A stretch of DNA of 7,581 bases from a virus (taxonomy: Duplodnaviria > Heunggongvirae > Uroviricota > Caudoviricetes), in IMG/VR virus record IMGVR_UViG_2541047885_000010, one strand, 5' to 3'. Under the pieces are notes generated by a model. The model worked only from the letters and a program-made list of their open reading frames with translations. It searched no databases and had not been told where the DNA came from. This document shows, piece after piece, positions 65 through 7,503 of the stretch. Within the stretch, counting starts at the first letter, position 1; each line of letters begins with the position of its first letter. The position numbers and the translations under genes are program-made.

Positions 65-75
65 GTCCATAAGAA

Positions 76-95
76 AGCCCCTCCGGAGAGGGGCT
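76..95 (-). terminator. Possible weak terminator hairpin for the minus-strand cargo transcript
   Basis: agcccctc (76-83) / gaggggct (88-95), 8-bp stem with cgga loop. On the minus strand it is followed by a T-rich but interrupted tract (tttcttat). Confidence 0.3.
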
Positions 96-440
96 GGAGA
101 GTGGCGCTATGTGCCATTGCATGATGCCGGGTGCCTCCCGGTGAGTTCAGCCCGGTGACACTGAACCCGCGTCATTCTCGTTTTGATAATCAGAGATTAT
201 ACCATCACCAGTCGCCCCTCCGCTCAGGGGGATTCACCATGCCGTTCTCTTTTAACAAATTCGCCGCTAACAGGACAACATTCCGCTTTCTGAGTTGTGA
301 GGAATTTAACACTTCACACCTGTGTGCATTTTCTACAGGCTGATCCCAGCACCACAATACATCGCAGGCAACAGAAGCCAAATGCCCCACCACAGAAAAA
401 ACATGCAATTATGATTATTGTTTACTGCAAAGATGTAGAA

Positions 441-869
441 TCACGGTTTAAAATCCAGCACTCCATTGTGAAATACTTTATATACTTCCGGAGACGGCGG
501 AACTGGTATATCAGCATGCTTCACCGCATTCATCGCTTCACGACATAAATCGGGGTCTCCACCTTCTCTTTTAACCTGTAGCAGAAGACCATTCGGGGCC
601 ATATACATTCTCAGTGAACACTCTTTTCCTGAATACTTACTCGCATCCTTTAACTGTTCTTCTATGGCTTTCCTGACCTGAATGGCATACTGCCTGATTT
701 CTTCACTGGCATCAGGGGTACGTTCCGATGAGCTCAAATTTTGCGACTTTATTAATTTATCTGAGTGATACAGAGAAGCATCATAATTATTTGTCGATAC
801 ATCTTTTGTGCAGCCAGTTGTCAGACTGGCTAATATCAAAACAAGAACTGGTACAGCACGGCAATACAT
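441..869 (-). CDS. Lipoprotein with a C-terminal TolA domain III-like domain (prophage cargo)
   Basis: 142-aa ORF with ATG at 869 and GGAG about 10 nt upstream. N-terminus MYCRAVPVLVLILASLTTGC is a hydrophobic signal ending in a lipobox-like TTGC. The C-terminal ~85 aa (...YSGKECSLRMYMAPNGLLLQVKREGGDPDLCREAMNAVKHADIPVPPSPEVYKVFHNGVLDFKP) aligns closely with my recollection of the E. coli TolA C-terminus (...YAGKTCTLRIKLAPDGMLLDIKPEGGDPALCQAALAAAKLAKIPKPPSQAVYEVFKNAPLDFKP). Confidence 0.8.
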   Translation of the reverse strand: MYCRAVPVLVLILASLTTGCTKDVSTNNYDASLYHSDKLIKSQNLSSSERTPDASEEIRQYAIQVRKAIEEQLKDASKYSGKECSLRMYMAPNGLLLQVKREGGDPDLCREAMNAVKHADIPVPPSPEVYKVFHNGVLDFKP

Positions 870-1147
870 TTATCCATCTCCATATTAACAAGAACAATTA
901 TCTATAAAATATAGTAAATATGCGGGATCCGGGAGGACTTGTAACTATCATCTCCGGATCAGCATGTAGTTTTTATTTTTCCGGATGATATATGCCGCAA
1001 TAATACCTCTGCATACAGATGCCTGCAAATATCTGCGAAGCATCCGGCGAGAATAAACAAGGAAGTCTGAGGCTATCTTATATGATAGCCTGTTGCTCAA
1101 AAGACAATGATTCACTCATCAGAACCAACAACGCATAATGCAGATAA

Positions 1148-1224
1148 TGGACCGCCATCGAGGACTCGAACCCCGCGCAGCCAGCTTCGAAGGCTGGCGC
1201 TCTATCCCGATGAGCTAATGGCGG
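1148..1224 (-). tRNA. tRNA-Arg (anticodon UCG)
   Basis: Reverse complement folds as a cloverleaf: acceptor CCGCCAT/ATGGCGG, D-stem GCTC/GAGC, anticodon stem CCAGC/GCTGG with loop CTTCGAA (anticodon TCG), T-stem CGGGG/CCTCG with loop TTCGAGT, then encoded CCA. 77 nt. Confidence 0.8.
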
Positions 1225-1233
1225 TATGTGATA

Positions 1234-1309
1234 TGGTGGCCCTTGCTGGATTTGAACCAGCTACCTGGCGATTATGAGTCGCTCGCTCTCACCACTGAGC
1301 TAAAGGGCC
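1234..1309 (-). tRNA. tRNA-Ile2 type (anticodon CAU, lysidine-type; formally could be tRNA-Met)
   Basis: Reverse complement GGCCCTTTAGCTCAGTGGTGAGAGCGAGCGACTCATAATCGCCAGGTAGCTGGTTCAAATCCAGCAAGGGCCACCA. Anticodon loop CTCATAA, T-loop TTCAAAT, encoded CCA, 76 nt. Closely resembles E. coli ileX/ileY and the ileZ of Stx phages as I recall them. Confidence 0.85.
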
Positions 1310-1349: not shown

Positions 1350-1688
1350 TCATCCGTTCTGACTGACTAAATCCTGAACTTCCCGAACCGTCTGCTCAAA
1401 ACGTTCAGTCTCCAGCTCAACGCCTGTAGCACGACGGCCCAGTGCCAGTGCAGCTTTAACTGTTGAACCTGACCCCATAAAAAAATCTGCAACCAGGTCA
1501 CCCGGACGACTGCTTGCGCTGATTATCTGCTGCAGCATTTCTGCCGGTTTTTCGCACGGATGTTTCCCGGGATAGAACTGCACCGGTTTATGCGTCCAGA
1601 CATCGGTATACGGCACCTGCGCCGTCACGCCAAAATACCGCCGCAGTCGGCATTCACAACCACCAGCGCATTTAACGTTCAGGCACAA
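1350..1688 (-). pseudogene. 5'-truncated remnant of a beta-class N4/N6 DNA methyltransferase (C-terminal SAM-binding part only)
   Basis: The ORF has no ATG (the ORF track starts it at a TTG). It contains ...HPCEKPAEMLQQIISASSRPGDLVADFFMGSGSTVKAALALGRRATGVELE..., which is the (Q/E)KP plus FxGSGST SAM-binding motif block of PF01555-type methylases. The DPPY catalytic region expected N-terminal to it is absent, and the upstream sequence is an AT-rich porin promoter region. Confidence 0.6.
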
Positions 1689-1712
1689 AAAAACCCGCTC
1701 GACGGCGGGTTT
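1685..1712 (-). terminator. Rho-independent terminator on the minus strand
   Basis: Minus-strand RNA reads aaacccgccgtcgagcggg followed by UUUUUUU (plus-strand A-run 1687-1693). Stem cccgc/gcggg at 1694-1698 / 1705-1709. Confidence 0.55.
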
Positions 1713-2138
1713 AAGCTGTGTGACGAAGTAACCACTCTTAACAGCATAACCAATTTTTTACGTACGTAAACTACTAAATGATATTTGTGAGAATGCCACC
1801 GAGTGTTCAAAACACCACCACAAATGCATAAGAAAACTTCAACAAATAACCAGTTAATAATTTCCGATGTTATTTTTAGTTTGTTTAAATTAAGCTAAAG
1901 AATTATAGAGCACTTATAAATAAGTGCCATTAATATAAATTAGCTAATAGATTTATTTTTGTTCAGACAAGAGCCATGAATAGGATTAGATAGAAAAGGT
2001 TCCGATAAAAATAGAGATCTACTTCACAAATTAAATGAGAAACTAAAACTTACATCTTGAAATAATCACATTGATTAGATGAATATTTATCGCGCAGTGA
2101 CATCATTTTTTAATAATAGTTCAAAAAAAGGGCGTACA

Positions 2139-3221
2139 ATGAAAAAATTAACAGTGGCAATTTCTGCTGTAGCTGCATCAGTACTGATGGCGATGTCTGC
2201 TCAGGCAGCTGAAATTTATAATAAAGACAGTAACAAGCTGGATCTATACGGGAAAGTTAATGCCAAGCACTACTTCTCCTCTAATGATGCAGATGATGGT
2301 GATACTACTTATGCTCGTCTTGGCTTCAAAGGTGAAACCCAAATCAACGATCAACTGACTGGTTTCGGTCAGTGGGAATATGACTTCAAAGGCAACCGTG
2401 CTGAATCTCAAGGTTCTTCCAAAGACAAAACCCGTCTTGCATTTGCAGGCCTGAAATTTGGTGATTACGGCTCAATCGATTACGGTCGTAACTACGGTGT
2501 AGCATACGACATCGGTGCGTGGACTGACGTTCTGCCAGAATTCGGTGGTGATACCTGGACCCAGACAGATGTGTTCATGACTGGCCGCACTACTGGTGTT
2601 GCAACTTATCGTAACAACGACTTCTTTGGTCTGGTCGATGGCCTGAACTTTGCTGCTCAGTATCAGGGTAAAAATGACCGCACTGACGTAACTGAAGCCA
2701 ATGGTGATGGTTTCGGTTTCTCCACTACTTATGAGTATGAAGGATTCGGCGTGGGTGCAACCTATGCTAAATCAGATCGCACTGACGGTCAGGTCGCCTA
2801 TGGTAAGAGCAAATTCAATGCCTCCGGCAAAAATGCGGAAGTATGGGCTGCAGGCCTGAAATATGATGCGAACAATATCTATCTGGCTACCACATATTCT
2901 GAAACTCAGAATATGACCGTTTTTGGTAATAACCATATTGCAAACAAAGCACAAAACTTTGAAGCAGTAGCACAATATCAGTTTGACTTCGGTCTGCGCC
3001 CATCTGTTGCTTACCTTCAGTCAAAAGGTAAAGACCTTGGTGTTCATGGTGACCGAGACTTAGTCAAGTATGTCGATGTCGGTGCTACTTACTACTTTAA
3101 TAAAAACATGTCCACTTTTGTTGATTACAAAATCAACTTAATTGACGATAGTAAGTTTACCAAAACAGCTGGTATTGATACCGACGACATCGTCGCTGTA
3201 GGTCTGGTTTATCAGTTCTAA
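2139..3221 (+). CDS. nmpC: Outer-membrane general porin of the OmpC/OmpF family, NmpC / phage PA-2 Lc type (prophage cargo gene)
   Basis: ATG at 2139 preceded by aaggg. Signal peptide [23 protein letters not shown] then [17 protein letters not shown]..., [18 protein letters not shown], and C-terminal ...VAVGLVYQF with terminal Phe. Opposite orientation to Q, as for nmpC relative to quuD in DLP12. The ORF-track start at 2079 adds 20 non-signal residues and is unlikely. Confidence 0.92.
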
Positions 3222-3409: not shown

Positions 3410-3793
3410 TCAATTAGAATTATTAGCAACGATATCCATATCTAACCGGATATCTAATGCCATTAACATCCCTTCAATTATGCCCTCAGCCTTCTGTAAC
3501 CTTTTCCCGATATAACCATCCGAGCAGCAATGCTTACTTGCCAGTGACATGAATGTCATACCACATACATAATAATCTACTAATAAATCGTGTAAATCGC
3601 TGTTGTTCTTTTTCAGACGGGCCATGCACCCGCAAATGATCATCGCGTCATCGTCACAACATTGCGGGCGAGATTTTACTTTTGAAGGAATTAATCCCTT
3701 AAAACCGGCAGCAATGGACGACCAGGTCACATCCTCATGATTATTTGCCGCCCATGCCCCCCAGCGTTCAAGAACCATCTGAATATCACGCAT
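3410..3793 (-). CDS. Late-gene antiterminator Q, phage 82 / QuuD type
   Basis: 127 aa from the ATG at 3793, with GGAG 7 nt upstream. Begins [26 protein letters not shown]... and has Cys-rich motifs (PQCCDD, CGC, HCC). Matches my recollection of the DLP12 QuuD family. The ORF-track start at 3808 is a TTG and less likely. Confidence 0.85.
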
Positions 3794-3810
3794 CAACTTT
3801 CTCCACAAAA

Positions 3811-4807: not shown

Positions 4808-5623
4808 TCAATGAACGGTATCGAGCAGCTTTAACAGCTCAGGGAATCGGGATTCGAAGAAATGCGGCTGCGTCTCGCGCGGATTTGCAGGACTGGTGAT
4901 GTTCTTGCCGAACATGCAGCCTTTCGCTGTCAGCGACCAGAATTTTTTGATGTTGTTAATCGCGGTACGGCTGTATCGTTCGCGTTGTTCAACGATCCCC
5001 AGCTTCGCCATCTGGTGATATGCCTGATTAGCCGTCAGGCGGATACCATACTGCTTCAGCAGTGCACTCAGCGACAGCGTAGGGCGGCTTGAACCATCTG
5101 GCGCATCAGCAGGTGCATCAATGGCATAGATCGGCATAAGTTCAGGAAGACCAGCTACCTTTGATAATTTCTGGTATGCACCAAGTTTCGAGGAGTTTGA
5201 CAGATTTAGAGTCTTTGCTGCTGATTCAAGCAGAATGACCCCGGATTTAATTTTGTCGGATGTGGTTTCTTCTGGTGATGAATTATGAAGCGCATCAAAA
5301 GTACGTATCACTTTTAAGCTGAATGCCGGGCTGATCCACATTGCATATGCATAGACCAGCTCTTTACAGACATACGTCCCACCATTGCGCCCCTGAATGG
5401 TGATGACAGGAATACTACGGGAATCTCCCGTAGTTTCTTCTTCCAATAATTCCACAAGAGCCTTCGTTTCAGGACGACGCATAAACTCGTGAACTTCCAG
5501 CGAACGGGAGGAGCGATTCTCACCAGCGGCAAGAAGAGCAGCTTTCTGAAGGTCGTTAAGACAGTAGTTAGATTCGAAGTACTGGCGCACAGAAACGCCA
5601 TCAATTACAAGCAACTGATTCAT
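4808..5623 (-). CDS. KilA-N domain protein (antirepressor-like / Roi-like DNA-binding protein)
   Basis: ATG at 5623 with GGAG 8 nt upstream (the ORF-track start at 5635 is a GTG). N-terminal MNQLLVIDGVSVRQ...GGTYVCKELVYAYAMWISPAFSLKVIRTFDAL is KilA-N/APSES-like. Stop TGA is 1 nt from the DUF968 start, suggesting co-translation. Confidence 0.7.
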   Translation of the reverse strand: MNQLLVIDGVSVRQYFESNYCLNDLQKAALLAAGENRSSRSLEVHEFMRRPETKALVELLEEETTGDSRSIPVITIQGRNGGTYVCKELVYAYAMWISPAFSLKVIRTFDALHNSSPEETTSDKIKSGVILLESAAKTLNLSNSSKLGAYQKLSKVAGLPELMPIYAIDAPADAPDGSSRPTLSLSALLKQYGIRLTANQAYHQMAKLGIVEQRERYSRTAINNIKKFWSLTAKGCMFGKNITSPANPRETQPHFFESRFPELLKLLDTVH

Positions 5624-5686
5624 TGGTTTCTCCACAAATTTTTATCCACGAGCGGGACTGCACTCCCTTTTCGTTGATGCAGGATG

Positions 5687-5715
5687 AACTTACTGCGATT
5701 TTTAATAGTTATCAA
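5687..5715 (-). promoter_or_regulatory. Candidate sigma-70 promoter for the kilA-N / DUF968 / Q block
   Basis: On the minus strand: -35 TTGATA (5710-5715), 17-nt spacer, -10 TAAGTT (5687-5692). An alternative upstream pair is -35 TTGAGC (5775-5780) and -10 GTATTA (5753-5758). Sequence-only prediction. Confidence 0.3.
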
Positions 5716-5720
5716 GGATA

Positions 5721-5740
5721 CACTGTTCATAAATACAGTA
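5721..5740. promoter_or_regulatory. SOS box (LexA operator), CTGT-N8-ACAG
   Basis: cactgttcataaatacagta: CTGT at 5723-5726, 8-nt AT-rich spacer, ACAG at 5735-5738. 16 of 20 positions match the E. coli consensus TACTGTATATATATACAGTA, with all invariant positions conserved. Sits in the 161-nt gap between rusA and kilA-N. Confidence 0.6.
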
Positions 5741-5785
5741 TCTTTAACGAGGTAATACCCAAATTTAGGGTGTTGCTCAATTCCG

Positions 5786-6181
5786 TTACCGAGTTGCTAA
5801 TTTGCAACTCGCTTTTTCGTACTTACTGATAGTGATCTCGACCTTCCCTTCCGGGATAACCGGTCCCCACTCCACCAGCATTCTTTTCACCTGGCTGTCG
5901 TCTTCCCACACACCCGCGTGGGTCAGGGCGTCAAACAGCGCCTTGTTATAGTTGTCCAGATCGCGGATCCGGTTATCCGGAGGAAACAACACGATCTCCA
6001 CTGAAGCAGGTGCCGACGTTGGTTTCGGCAGACGACGTAACTGCTCAACTATTGCTGCACACGCCGCGCTCTGGAATTTTCGCCCCGCCGCGCTTATCAG
6101 GCTCTTACCAGCAAACGCCCCTTTGTTGGGGTGTCGCCAGTACGTGTTCACGCTGGGCGGAAAAGGCAGTATTAGCTTCAT
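5786..6181 (-). CDS. rusA: RusA-family Holliday junction resolvase
   Basis: N-terminal ...LPFPPSVNTYWRH... and DNRIRDLDNYNKALFDALTHAGVWEDDSQV match the RusA family (LPWPPSNNRYYRH..., [28 protein letters not shown]). ATG overlaps the upstream stop as ATGA. About 10 aa longer at the C-terminus than E. coli RusA. Confidence 0.85.
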   Translation of the reverse strand: MKLILPFPPSVNTYWRHPNKGAFAGKSLISAAGRKFQSAACAAIVEQLRRLPKPTSAPASVEIVLFPPDNRIRDLDNYNKALFDALTHAGVWEDDSQVKRMLVEWGPVIPEGKVEITISKYEKASCKLATR

Positions 6182-6504
6182 ACTTTCAGGCCCCTCTCAT
6201 GTAACCAGTGGGCTGCACGCAGCCTTGCGTTTTCCTCACCGGCAAGCAGTGAGCGGATAATCCCGACCGCCTCGCTGTCGTCGTCCTTCACCGCGGTATG
6301 AAGAGTGATACCCCGGGCCACGCCACGCTTTATCGTGATGACACCTTTTTTCTCCAGTGCGCGAAGATGCTCCACCGCTGCATTCACCGAACGGTATCCC
6401 AGCATGGTTGCCACCTCCTGATTGGTTGGCGGGAAGCCACGTTCTTTCTGATAAGAAATCAGCATATCCAGCACCTGCTGCTGGCATTGAGTTAATGTCG
6501 TCAT
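6178..6504 (-). CDS. LexA-like winged-helix DNA-binding-domain protein lacking the S24 peptidase domain
   Basis: 108 aa. MTTLTQCQQQVLDMLISYQKERGFPPTNQEVATMLGYRSVNAAVEHLRALEKKGVITIKRGVARGITL aligns with LexA residues 1-70 ([68 protein letters not shown]), including the recognition helix S-x-NAA-x-EHL. The C-terminal ~35 aa are unrelated to the LexA protease domain. ATGA overlaps at both ends. Confidence 0.75.
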   Translation of the reverse strand: MTTLTQCQQQVLDMLISYQKERGFPPTNQEVATMLGYRSVNAAVEHLRALEKKGVITIKRGVARGITLHTAVKDDDSEAVGIIRSLLAGEENARLRAAHWLHERGLKV

Positions 6505-7153
6505 GCCGCCATCTCCCTGACCAGTTTTTCTGCCTGCTGGCGAACCTGCGCCAGAAAGGCCTCACCACATGCCTCAAGTTCATCGCGCCCGATGTAGCTG
6601 ATTGCCGGTCCCTTCCAGGTCTTGTCGAAAACAGCAATAGCACCAGCGAAGAAAGCGCCTGTCGGCACCTGCTTCTCATCCTTCGGGATAAACCAGGCAG
6701 GCAGTTCAAAACCAATACGCCCGCGAATAAAAGCAATATGATCTGCATCTTCCGGCCACCACACTTGCTGGTGGCAGCTTTGATCAGGAAAACATAGCGC
6801 CCGCCTTTATCACGCATGGCACTGGCATGCTTCATGATGTAACGCATGCCGGTGATGTATTGTCCCTCATGCTGACTGGCGCGGCTGTACGGGGGATTAC
6901 CAAAGGCAGCACCTTTAAGCTCCGCAAGACGTTCTGACCAGTCATGTGCCAGCGCGTTGTCTTCCGCCGTGTAATACGCGGCACATTTGGCGTTATCACC
7001 GTCAGTAAACAGATCCAGAACAAACGGGCCAAACAGGGTGTTAATTCCCCAGAAAATGTTGTCCGGCGTGCGCCACTGATCGCCCACTTCCTTCAGTTCA
7101 TGGGCTGGTTTGTTCCGTAGTTCCACCAGCGCCTGGCAATATTTATTACTCAT
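6501..7153 (-). pseudogene. Phage Dam-family DNA N6-adenine methyltransferase, interrupted by a frameshift at about 6760-6763
   Basis: N-terminal frame from ATG 7153 gives MSNKYCQALVELRNKPAHELKEVGDQWRTPDNIFWGINTLFGPFVLDLFTDGDNAKCAAYYTAEDNALAHDWSERLAELKGAAFGNPPYS...GGRYVFLIKAATSK (NPPY catalytic motif), then becomes low-complexity nonsense. A second frame resumes with WWPEDADHIAFIRGRIGFELPAWFIP... and ends at 6501 in an ATGA overlap with the next gene. Joining the two frames at K|WW reproduces the family motif as I recall it (...ARTDTRWWHD...RFIRGRLKF). Confidence 0.75.
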
Positions 7154-7503
7154 TAAGCCCCCACGTAATTCCCTGAGAGGTACCACTCTTCACCTGATGC
7201 AGCCCGCTTACTGCTTTTCCGTAAACACCGTTCACGACGCGCCAGAAAATTGTTTCGTTCTGGCTGGGAGTGGCTTTCACGGAATGCCGCCATCCACACC
7301 GTTGCAGCACGACGGTATAAGCCCCTGGACTCCAGTTCTTCCGCCTGGCGGGTCAGGCACAAAATCACCCGGGGATCGTTAGTGCCGACATAGAAATTGC
7401 GCACAGGTATGGTTTCAAGAACAGGTTGCAGTTTCTCCTCCTGCGATATCTCAGCCTGGTGTGGGAAATGTCTGCGTGTTTTCCCTTCACAACAGTGAGC
7501 CAC
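7153..7503 (-). CDS. PerC-family (Pch-like) transcriptional regulator, 5' end uncertain
   Basis: Contains ...LTRQAEELESRGLYRRAATVWMAAFRESHSQPERNNFLARRERCL..., resembling the PerC/Pch signature (LE-x-GLWRRAA-x-W ... RR-x-CL). Stop TAA overlaps the Dam ATG as TAATG. The only in-window start is a GTG at 7503 with no clear ribosome-binding site, and the frame stays open to position 7581. Confidence 0.45.
   Translation of the reverse strand: MAHCCEGKTRRHFPHQAEISQEEKLQPVLETIPVRNFYVGTNDPRVILCLTRQAEELESRGLYRRAATVWMAAFRESHSQPERNNFLARRERCLRKSSKRAASGEEWYLSGNYVGA

Follow-up and report, generated by a model that had tools for sequence, protein, structure and literature searches.

The TolA-like gene and its product

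The DNA analysed here, 7,581 nucleotides (nt) of a Caudoviricetes virus (IMG/VR record IMGVR_UViG_2541047885_000010; hereafter the window), encodes on its minus strand a 142-residue lipoprotein that ends in a domain of the TolA domain III type. The coding sequence (CDS), taken from the list of open reading frames (ORFs), occupies 441..869, with its ATG at 869, its stop codon at 441-443 and, read directly from the letters, a Shine-Dalgarno-like GGAG (878..881, minus) 8 nt 5' of the ATG. Three parts can be distinguished in the product: a signal peptide with a lipobox, MYCRAVPVLVLILASLTTG followed by cysteine (codons 1-20, 810..869, minus), located by a PROSITE-like pattern; a linker rich in Ser, Thr, Asn and Asp (codons 21-53, 711..809, minus) that is predicted to be disordered from the predicted local distance difference test (pLDDT) and from family conservation; and TolA domain III itself (codons 54-142, 444..710, minus), delimited by an ungapped alignment to TolA, an AlphaFold2 model and Foldseek.

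An earlier note on this DNA had proposed a C terminus resembling TolA domain III, and sequence and structure comparisons both bear this out. Residues 52-140 score 81.9 bits with Pfam PF06519 (TolA C-terminal; cut-off 25, E=3.8e-23), the match running from position 7 to the last of the 96 profile positions, and the only matches in the Pfam scan of the protein are TolA and TonB_2. In a phmmer search of PDB sequences, the top matches are all E. coli TolA domain III (1s62, 3qdp, 2x9a, 1tol and 9k49; E 8e-27 to 2e-25). Residues 54-142 align with residues 333-421 of E. coli TolA without a single gap, 48 of the 89 positions being identical (54%), and the identical blocks include GGDP-x-LC and the C-terminal VF-x-N-xx-LDFKP. 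The AlphaFold2 model, built from an input alignment of 33 family sequences, is confident over residues 51-142 (pLDDT above 90) but not over residues 1-50 (below 50), and its elements follow the same order as in TolA III (a1 54-70, b1 84-90, b2 96-104, a2 106-118, a3 127-133, b3 136-140). Foldseek superposes it on the TolA C-terminal domain in 2x9a_B with a template modelling (TM) score of 0.95 and a root-mean-square deviation of 0.7 A. In the alignment, Cys84 and Cys109 correspond to the disulfide pair C363 and C388 of TolA.

The N terminus, which the same note had taken for a lipoprotein-type signal peptide, likewise agrees with that description: the leader MYCRAVPVLVLILASLTTGC matches a PROSITE-type lipoprotein pattern, the matching stretch being VLILASLTTGC and the predicted lipidated residue Cys20. 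Position -3 of the lipobox is a non-canonical Thr in this allele; relatives have canonical L-x-G/A-C boxes, and the lipobox Cys is invariant or nearly so in family alignments. Since the residue at +2 after Cys20 is Thr, and not the Asp that serves as the Lol avoidance signal, the Lol rule predicts sorting to the outer membrane, and this is the location we infer for the protein. The linker that follows is the least conserved part of the family (1.65 bits per column).

Although it belongs to the TolA_C domain family, the protein is not an orthologue of TolA, three defining features of which are missing. Its 142 residues leave no room for the transmembrane helix of TolA domain I or for the Ala/Lys/Glu-rich domain II, whose absence had also been claimed earlier, and a cleavable lipoprotein leader stands in their place. 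Two NCBIfam TolA models are matched at their C-terminal ends only (profile positions 266-362 of 362 and 297-386 of 387), that is, over the last 90-97 positions; the score against NF007065 is 104.6, below the cut-off of 213, and that against TIGR02794 is 74.2, above the cut-off of 59.45. Finally, the gene is flanked by phage Q, tRNA genes, a small RNA (sRNA), an esterase gene and a holin gene, and not by the ybgC-tolQRA-tolB-pal-cpoB context.

The label 'tolA: cell envelope integrity protein TolA' that PGAP/RefSeq gives to these 142-residue lipoproteins (loci L001 and L018-L022, and many plasmids) arises because the domain alone passes the TIGR02794 equivalog cut-off, and it makes genomes seem to hold two or three tolA genes. 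RefSeq also names the family 'cell envelope integrity TolA C-terminal domain-containing protein'.

Position of the gene at the stx slot

Along the direction of minus-strand transcription the window contains PerC-like, Dam, LexA DNA-binding domain, RusA, KilA-N and DUF968 genes, then the antiterminator gene Q, and beyond Q an OmpC-like porin gene on the opposite strand, a promoter/terminator unit, a methyltransferase remnant, two tRNA genes, the TolA-like gene and an STnc100 sRNA. Q (3410..3808, minus) is of the QuuD type, as judged from Pfam Phage_antitermQ (E=7.7e-54) and from the quuD annotation in the corresponding locus of strain AR_0013 (L001). The porin gene (2139-3221, with an ORF from 2079, plus) is of the OmpC/Lc/NmpC type (Pfam Porin_1, E=2.6e-151); it adjoins Q, runs opposite to the late genes and is a second envelope-modifying cargo gene.

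The promoter/terminator unit (1691..1930, minus) is made up of ATGGCA-17-TATAAT at 1930-1902, found by consensus scan, and a strong intrinsic terminator about 190 nt on (1712-1691). In phage ev017 and its relatives the same segment, with 100% identity, directly precedes the holin gene, and Q and an oppositely oriented porin gene stand just before it; this identity places the porin gene between Q and the late promoter. We read the segment as a probable pR'/tR' (6S-like) unit, at which the transcript of the TolA-like gene would start.

Between this unit and the TolA-like gene are the 3' remnant of a DNA methyltransferase gene (1350..1688, minus; roughly its final third, matching Pfam N6_N4_Mtase from position 135 to position 220 of 221, and a pseudogene in the L001 annotation), a tRNA gene with a CAT anticodon (1234..1309, minus; tRNA-Met/Ile2 by ARAGORN, tRNA-Ile in the identical L001 locus according to RefSeq, ileZ-type) and, immediately 5' of the TolA-like gene and in the same direction, a tRNA-Arg (TCG) gene (1148..1224, minus; ARAGORN and Rfam). 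An intact methyltransferase gene of 1059 nt occurs at the same place in the related prophages L018, L021 and L022, and the remnant marks a junction formed by recombination between a Q-porin-pR' module and a Stx-phage-like tRNA/cargo module.

On the 3' side the cargo unit is bounded by an sRNA of the STnc100/PasD prophage family (65..271, minus; Rfam RF02076, a full-length match at 158 bits against a gathering cut-off of 47, E=2e-36), which lies about 170 nt 3' of the TolA-like stop codon, ends in a terminator (95-76, minus) and precedes the position of the esterase gene in related prophages. A 2026 preprint ties STnc100 to the PasD prophage sRNAs. The sRNA in the window could have a promoter of its own or derive from the TolA-like transcript, at its 3' end.

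The identical locus in strain AR_0013 continues from the TolA-like gene into a SASA/NanS-p-type esterase gene, DUF1378 and DUF826 genes, and holin, lysozyme and spanin genes. Three further prophages have the same core of Q, methyltransferase, tRNA-Ile, tRNA-Arg, tolA-like gene, esterase-position gene and holin. The TolA-like gene thus occupies the stxAB slot of Stx phages, in line with the cargo position 3' of Q and the tRNA genes that the earlier note had assigned to it, and most related phages lack the gene and have stx or nothing there. What is shared with stxAB is the slot (Q, late promoter, tRNA-Ile/Arg, cargo, NanS-p-type esterase, holin), while the protein itself is unrelated and no toxin. 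The shared slot suggests that the TolA-like gene probably has the same Q-dependent expression: to judge by position, it would be the first intact CDS of the late transcript, and Q would drive read-through into it.

Other features of the window lie before Q. Farthest upstream is a homologue of the PerC family of transcriptional activators (7153-7503, minus; Pfam PerC, E=4.2e-9), followed by a Dam-type frame (6236-7186, minus) that matches Pfam Dam over about the first 100 positions and then continues in another frame. A separate 87-residue ORF (6501-6764, minus) may be the displaced C-terminal part of Dam, and the Dam gene in the window is probably frameshifted, or else affected by a sequencing error. 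Also present is a 108-residue protein (6178-6504, minus) that contains a LexA DNA-binding domain (Pfam LexA_DNA_bind, E=2.9e-19) and lacks the S24 peptidase domain, and which would thus be a non-cleavable, prophage-encoded LexA-like protein.

Conservation of the docking surfaces

The beta3 edge strand of TolA III (A415-K420) is the docking site of g3p-N1, colicin N and the TolB N terminus (PMC4339652, PMC7391070), and the D418P and K420P mutants of TolA lose binding and show the full tol phenotype (PMC4339652). Colicin A docks at L375-P380, on the other edge of the domain, and makes cation-pi contacts with K368, K379 and K396 (PMC3365938). Affinities for TolA III are about 1 uM for ColN and g3p and about 40 uM for TolB (PMC4339652), and the domain has been portrayed as a promiscuous hub for beta-addition (PMC4339652, PMC3365938).

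In the window protein the residues L417-D418-F419-K420-P421 of TolA are all identical, and both disulfide cysteines are retained. Among 32 diverse family members the consensus over positions 413-421, KNAPLDFKP, is the same as in E. coli TolA; agreement of the family consensus with E. coli TolA ranges from 57 to 100% per structural element and is 100% on beta3, and the b2 edge, to which colicin A binds, is far more variable than beta3. Conservation of the contact surface, which the earlier note had singled out, therefore holds for the beta3 LDFKP site of g3p, ColN and TolB, and only in part for the colicin A site.

A large family on prophages, plasmids and chromosomes

The TolA-like gene is no peculiarity of a single prophage. 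Members of the large family to which it belongs occur on plasmids and chromosomes as well as on prophages. Megablast detects it in 897 of 5426 complete E. coli genomes, where all copies are annotated 'tolA'. These E. coli matches include 122 at 95% identity or higher, which constitute the subtype seen in the window, and 773 at 80-90% over the 3' two-thirds of the gene, which constitute a second subtype with another leader. Between the first TolA-C gene and the holin gene essD, this second, commoner subtype has a further TolA-C lipoprotein gene of divergent sequence, which immediately precedes essD (L019 11456-11830, minus, and the same in L020; L002 4359-4754, minus). The second paralogue is 28% identical to the first, ends in GFDMRG instead of LDFKP and has extra cysteines; in its TolA III domain it is 92% identical to a protein encoded in the leading region of pO157-type plasmids (L017 6947-7378, plus). 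In addition, a Salmonella lambdoid prophage has a 146-residue homologue between Q and the holin gene, with a domain that is 52% identical.

More distant relatives are numerous. Searched exhaustively with HMMER, a set of 1.84 billion cluster representatives yielded 330 matches at E<=1e-3; among the best 149 of these, 75 are 105-170 residues long, each representing a 50%-identity cluster, and 52 of the 75 have a signal peptide and a lipobox. Not one of these 52 has Asp at +2. A tblastn search of PLSDB matched 1300 plasmid records (659 from Klebsiella and 548 from Escherichia), all but one of the matches being below 60% amino-acid identity and the inspected ones at 29-42%. The protein also matches PHROG 5772 ('unknown function') over residues 6-142 (E=5e-57). 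Its architecture fits that of the TolA-III-only lipoproteins borne by mobile genetic elements, which are 120-160 residues long and consist of a leader with a lipobox, a variable linker and a single TolA_C domain.

Two records that bear the TolA name were examined and set aside. EDL933_2012, a 'TolA' linked to a 32-fold induction by ciprofloxacin, is a tail-fibre protein, and the Stutzerimonas phage 'TolA AMG' (PMC10520572) is an annotation only.

These data also bear on whether the gene could be a functionless piece of tolA that arose by illegitimate recombination and is passively carried. Several second-subtype alleles (P0021-P0028, P0036 and P0037) are frameshifted after the IPAP motif or truncated, with loss of a3 and b3, so that part of the population carries inactivated copies; the surrounding DNA is a mosaic with pseudogenes such as the methylase remnant, and mEp460_ev081 is the sole genome with the gene among sequenced phages. 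The ratio of nonsynonymous to synonymous substitution (dN/dS) between the window allele and other alleles is 0.23-0.40, which indicates purifying selection, and family alignments have invariant Cys, Gly and Asp positions. The replacement of domains I and II by leader, lipobox and linker is kept in dozens of 50%-identity clusters across Enterobacterales, and a passive remnant is hard to square with the occurrence of the gene in so many E. coli genomes and plasmid records. We therefore regard this explanation as very improbable. A recent origin from the host tolA in particular is ruled out by the 54% identity, the dedicated lipoprotein leader and the purifying selection.

Comparison of the window gene with the L018 allele (11996-12424) shows a single synonymous change in codons 1-53 and about 22 differing sites in codons 54-142 (synonymous divergence 0.23). 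This mosaic divergence suggests recombination inside the gene.

Genomic contexts of the relatives

Bacteriocin loci are a recurrent setting of the family. On Klebsiella ColRNAI plasmids of 10-12 kb, which carry an rRNase/tRNase-type bacteriocin gene with immunity and lysis genes, an operon divergent from the bacteriocin cluster encodes an 81-residue protein, a 123-residue TolA C-terminal domain (CTD) lipoprotein and a 121-residue periplasmic TonB-CTD protein with a signal peptide (in L016, NZ_CP023944.1, the operon is at 5165-5898, minus, and the bacteriocin cluster at 6744-8930, plus). When the 1300 plasmid matches are sampled at even intervals, such plasmids make up about one quarter of the sampled rows, and a survey of Klebsiella bacteriocins recorded 'TolA' and 'TolB family' genes on one of them without comment (PMC10269471). 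On a metagenomic contig (L008 4835-7414; also L009) the gene of a 137-residue TolA-CTD lipoprotein adjoins, and diverges from, that of a 438-residue pore-forming colicin. This colicin contains a ColA_N (TolA-binding) domain, has a LexA box 36 nt 5' of its start and is accompanied by a convergent gene for a 113-residue membrane protein resembling an E1-type immunity protein. The LexA boxes sit at the colicin promoters, so that co-regulation of the adjoining TolA-like genes is not established by them. A Salmonella member adjoins microcin V-type genes and their exporter.

Pairing with a TonB C-terminal domain is seen on a second type of element as well. Three of the four sampled prophages of the window subtype encode a 108-residue TonB_C lipoprotein (leader ending in LVMGC; Pfam E=1.3e-14), and its gene occupies the place of bor, with the lysis genes on one side and the terminase genes on the other (L001 2651-2977, minus; L018 1877-2203; L022 5390-5716). 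The family of this protein is PHROG 1267, labelled 'Rz-like spanin'.

Lysis genes and bacteriocin genes in the neighbourhood raise the possibility that the protein is a Tol-Pal antagonist made from the late transcript: it would titrate the TolB N terminus off TolA and stop the mobilisation of Pal, leaving a leaky, vesiculating outer membrane, and the selected effect would be easier lysis, release of phage or bacteriocin, or vesicle production, and not protection. The gene is indeed the first intact CDS after the pR'/tR'-like unit, 5' of the holin, lysozyme and spanin genes, the commoner prophage type has its tandem TolA-C genes immediately before essD, some members adjoin SOS-controlled bacteriocin genes, and the spanin label of the TonB_C lipoprotein points the same way. 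Also, TolAIII is exported in biotechnology precisely for outer-membrane leakiness (PMC6195910), and the full tol phenotype of D418P and K420P accompanies loss of TolB binding (PMC4339652). The prophages, however, already have a complete holin, endolysin and spanin set and the Klebsiella bacteriocin plasmid a lysis gene of its own; the pairing with a TonB CTD is hard to explain, as TonB has no role in envelope integrity; the affinity of TolA for TolB is low (about 40 uM, PMC4339652); and chromosomal and conjugative-plasmid copies stand outside lysis contexts, where a constitutive tol phenotype would be costly. On balance, we consider this role rather unlikely, although it is the main rival of the reading favoured below.

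Other members of the family are found in settings of a different kind. On pO157-type IncF plasmids the divergent paralogue lies in the leading region after psiB-psiA-hok, and one member is in a phage-like element with a VapE-type primase. A 144-residue member on Klebsiella and Enterobacter IncR/IncF plasmids comes directly after a thioredoxin-fold gene (seen in L014 5406-6435, plus), whose product has a signal peptide, is DsbA-like and contains a CxxC motif; such a neighbour may help the disulfide of TolA III to form. On Klebsiella and Raoultella chromosomes a 135-142-residue member is convergent with the gene of a TonB-dependent receptor, with a two-component system nearby.

Settings of this kind would suit a TolA III scaffold that has been reused for some other partner, such as a TonB-dependent receptor, a porin (for example, the neighbouring OmpC-like one), peptidoglycan/Pal or a toxin, in a role unrelated to competition with native TolA, for example as an adaptor, a stabiliser or a toxin-specific immunity protein. 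The fixed position beside the receptor gene and two-component system in Klebsiella and Raoultella, the thioredoxin-fold neighbour on IncR/IncF plasmids, and the second prophage/pO157 paralogue, which has GFDMRG in place of LDFKP and extra cysteines, are all in keeping with such reuse, as is the promiscuity of TolA III in beta-addition (PMC4339652, PMC3365938). In the window subtype, on the other hand, the docking strand is that of native TolA and the surface of TolA III is largely kept, as competition for native ligands would predict, and no data here point to any alternative partner. Reuse of this kind is therefore unlikely for the window protein.

A proposed outer-membrane decoy of the TolA tip

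The reading that we favour, plausible though a little short of what we would call probable, is that the protein is a TolA III decoy tethered to the outer membrane, which diverts Tol ligands from the TolQRA motor and so confers tolerance to colicins and Ff phages. Lol sorting would place the lipoprotein on the inner face of the outer membrane, where a flexible linker of about 33 residues would bear the folded, disulfide-bonded domain III. Without TolA domains I and II there can be no coupling to the TolQR motor, which leaves the roles of decoy or dominant negative; a TolA III that TolQR cannot energise, lipid-tethered under the outer membrane, can act only by binding TolA III ligands. The free beta3 edge strand LDFKP and the adjacent groove would bind native ligands by beta-strand addition, namely N1 of filamentous-phage g3p, the translocation domains that group A colicins thread through porins and, more weakly, the TolB N terminus. 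As captured ligands would never be pulled inward, Tol-dependent import would be blocked. Invader ligands bind about 40-fold more tightly than TolB, so that a moderate amount of decoy should intercept invaders more than it disturbs Tol-Pal. The payoff for the element would be that its host, or the induced cell until burst, survives attack by colicins or Ff phages. Ligand binding, the protective outcome and the timing of expression are here all inferred from the gene and its surroundings.

We favour the decoy for several reasons. The repeated pairing with a TonB CTD on two unrelated types of element points to the energising of import, the one property common to TolA and TonB; bacteriocin loci are a recurrent setting of family members, and one of these loci encodes a colicin with a TolA-binding domain; parasitic ligands outbind TolB, so that a decoy can be selective; and a porin gene is part of the window's cargo too. 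The earlier note had already suggested a decoy or a perturbation of Tol-Pal function, and its proposal is consistent with the conserved LDFKP, the bacteriocin-plasmid contexts and the TonB-CTD pairing.

Export of TolAIII is itself said to give colicin tolerance, reportedly in work by Levengood-Freyermuth et al. from 1993. Periplasmic export of TolAIII has strong effects in vivo, including leakage (PMC6195910), and periplasmic g3p-N1, which sequesters TolA, makes cells resistant to colicin A and lowers phage uptake by 4 logs (PMC10424213).

Several observations weigh against the decoy. On the colicin A side, K368 is replaced by Tyr89, D377 by Gln and P380 by Arg in the window protein, and K368 of TolA is the partner of the essential Tyr-58 of ColA (PMC3365938). 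Colicin E1 is reported to use TolA differently (Schendel 1997). PADLOC has neither a match nor a model for the protein, and a characterisation of any family member was not found in published full texts. The Klebsiella chromosomal copies and the leading-region copies of pO157-type plasmids have no evident link to bacteriocins. A decoy would also compete for TolB, at a possible cost to the host. Lambdoid phages are not known to use TolA themselves, so the effect would not be classical self-exclusion.

Expression raises a further difficulty of the same kind. A protective decoy has to be made in the lysogen, and the position in the late transcript may mean that it is not, which weakens the case for protection of lysogens in particular. 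The sole candidate for a promoter of the gene's own is a weak 9/12 match at 1029-1000, which does not rise above chance, and promoter-like sites are fewer than expected by chance in the consensus scan. Nor is such a promoter conserved: the two prophage subtypes have no similarity upstream of the gene, their shared sequence covering only 440-801 of the window. There are no LexA boxes near the window gene.

A possible generalization, which we offer as more speculative than the decoy itself, is that the exported, motor-less C-terminal domains of TolA and TonB on mobile elements of Enterobacterales are widespread, broad-spectrum import decoys. The TolA copies, anchored in the outer membrane, would give tolerance to group A colicins and the TonB copies to group B, both would act against Tol- or Ton-dependent phages, and they would do so at translocation, not at the receptor or on the toxin. 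The class would span lambdoid prophages, Col-type bacteriocin plasmids, and F-like and IncR plasmids.

Relation to known systems

With domain III of E. coli TolA (about residues 325-421; 1TOL, 1S62, 2X9A, 3QDP/3QDR) the window protein has in common the fold, the disulfide cysteines and LDFKP; it differs in being lipid-anchored, as predicted, at the opposite membrane, in being encoded by a prophage and in lying outside the tol-pal operon. The nearest mechanistic precedent is engineered periplasmic TolAIII, a signal sequence joined to TolA III, which is likewise exported without the motor and gives a dominant-negative effect with leakage (PMC6195910, which cites Wan & Baneyx 1998 for this work). 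That construct, however, is soluble and overexpressed, whereas the window protein is a natural, linker-tethered lipoprotein, 46% diverged in sequence.

A mirror image is provided by exclusion through filamentous g3p, which depends on the same interaction between g3p-N1 and TolA III (PMC10424213): there the ligand of the invader saturates the TolA of the host, whereas here it is the invader's ligand that would be saturated, by a copy of the host receptor.

Small outer-membrane lipoproteins that alter susceptibility to phages, colicins or serum are well known from mobile elements, and include Cor of phi80, N15 and HK022, Llp of T5, TraT of F and the lambda morons Bor/Iss. The window protein resembles them in size, in its predicted lipidation, in its origin from a mobile element and in a moron-type position near lysis genes. 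The entry-blocking lipoproteins Cor, Llp and TraT would be its nearest natural functional analogues, and they are unrelated in sequence, as searches for homology to Cor and Llp gave Pfam matches to TolA and TonB_2 only, PHROG 5772 and nothing in PADLOC. Cor and Llp inactivate the outer-membrane receptor FhuA, whereas the window protein would mimic the tip of a periplasmic energy transducer and capture the ligand. Under the decoy reading it would belong among the exclusion or tolerance functions encoded by mobile elements, acting by energy-transducer-tip mimicry.

Implications

Entry of colicins and phages through Tol and Ton is textbook knowledge, and the natural protections known against it are loss of the receptor, immunity proteins and receptor-blocking proteins of the Cor/Llp kind. 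The identity of the domain was already visible in databases, in PHROG 5772 and under the RefSeq name 'tolA', a name that can mislead pangenome and essentiality analyses. The family is common, with close relatives in about one sixth of complete E. coli genomes and distant ones in more than 1000 plasmid records, its member in the window lies at the stx slot, and the proposed decoy function is easily testable. If true, it would represent a different principle of protection, a natural, horizontally transferred decoy of the TolA tip. It would then bear on the prediction from genomes of sensitivity to colicins and filamentous phages, including phage-display helpers, on the ways in which bacteriocin-based therapeutics might fail, and on the interpretation of the cargo at the stx position of Stx-like prophages. 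It would also provide research on Tol-Pal with a natural, evolutionarily tuned inhibitor.

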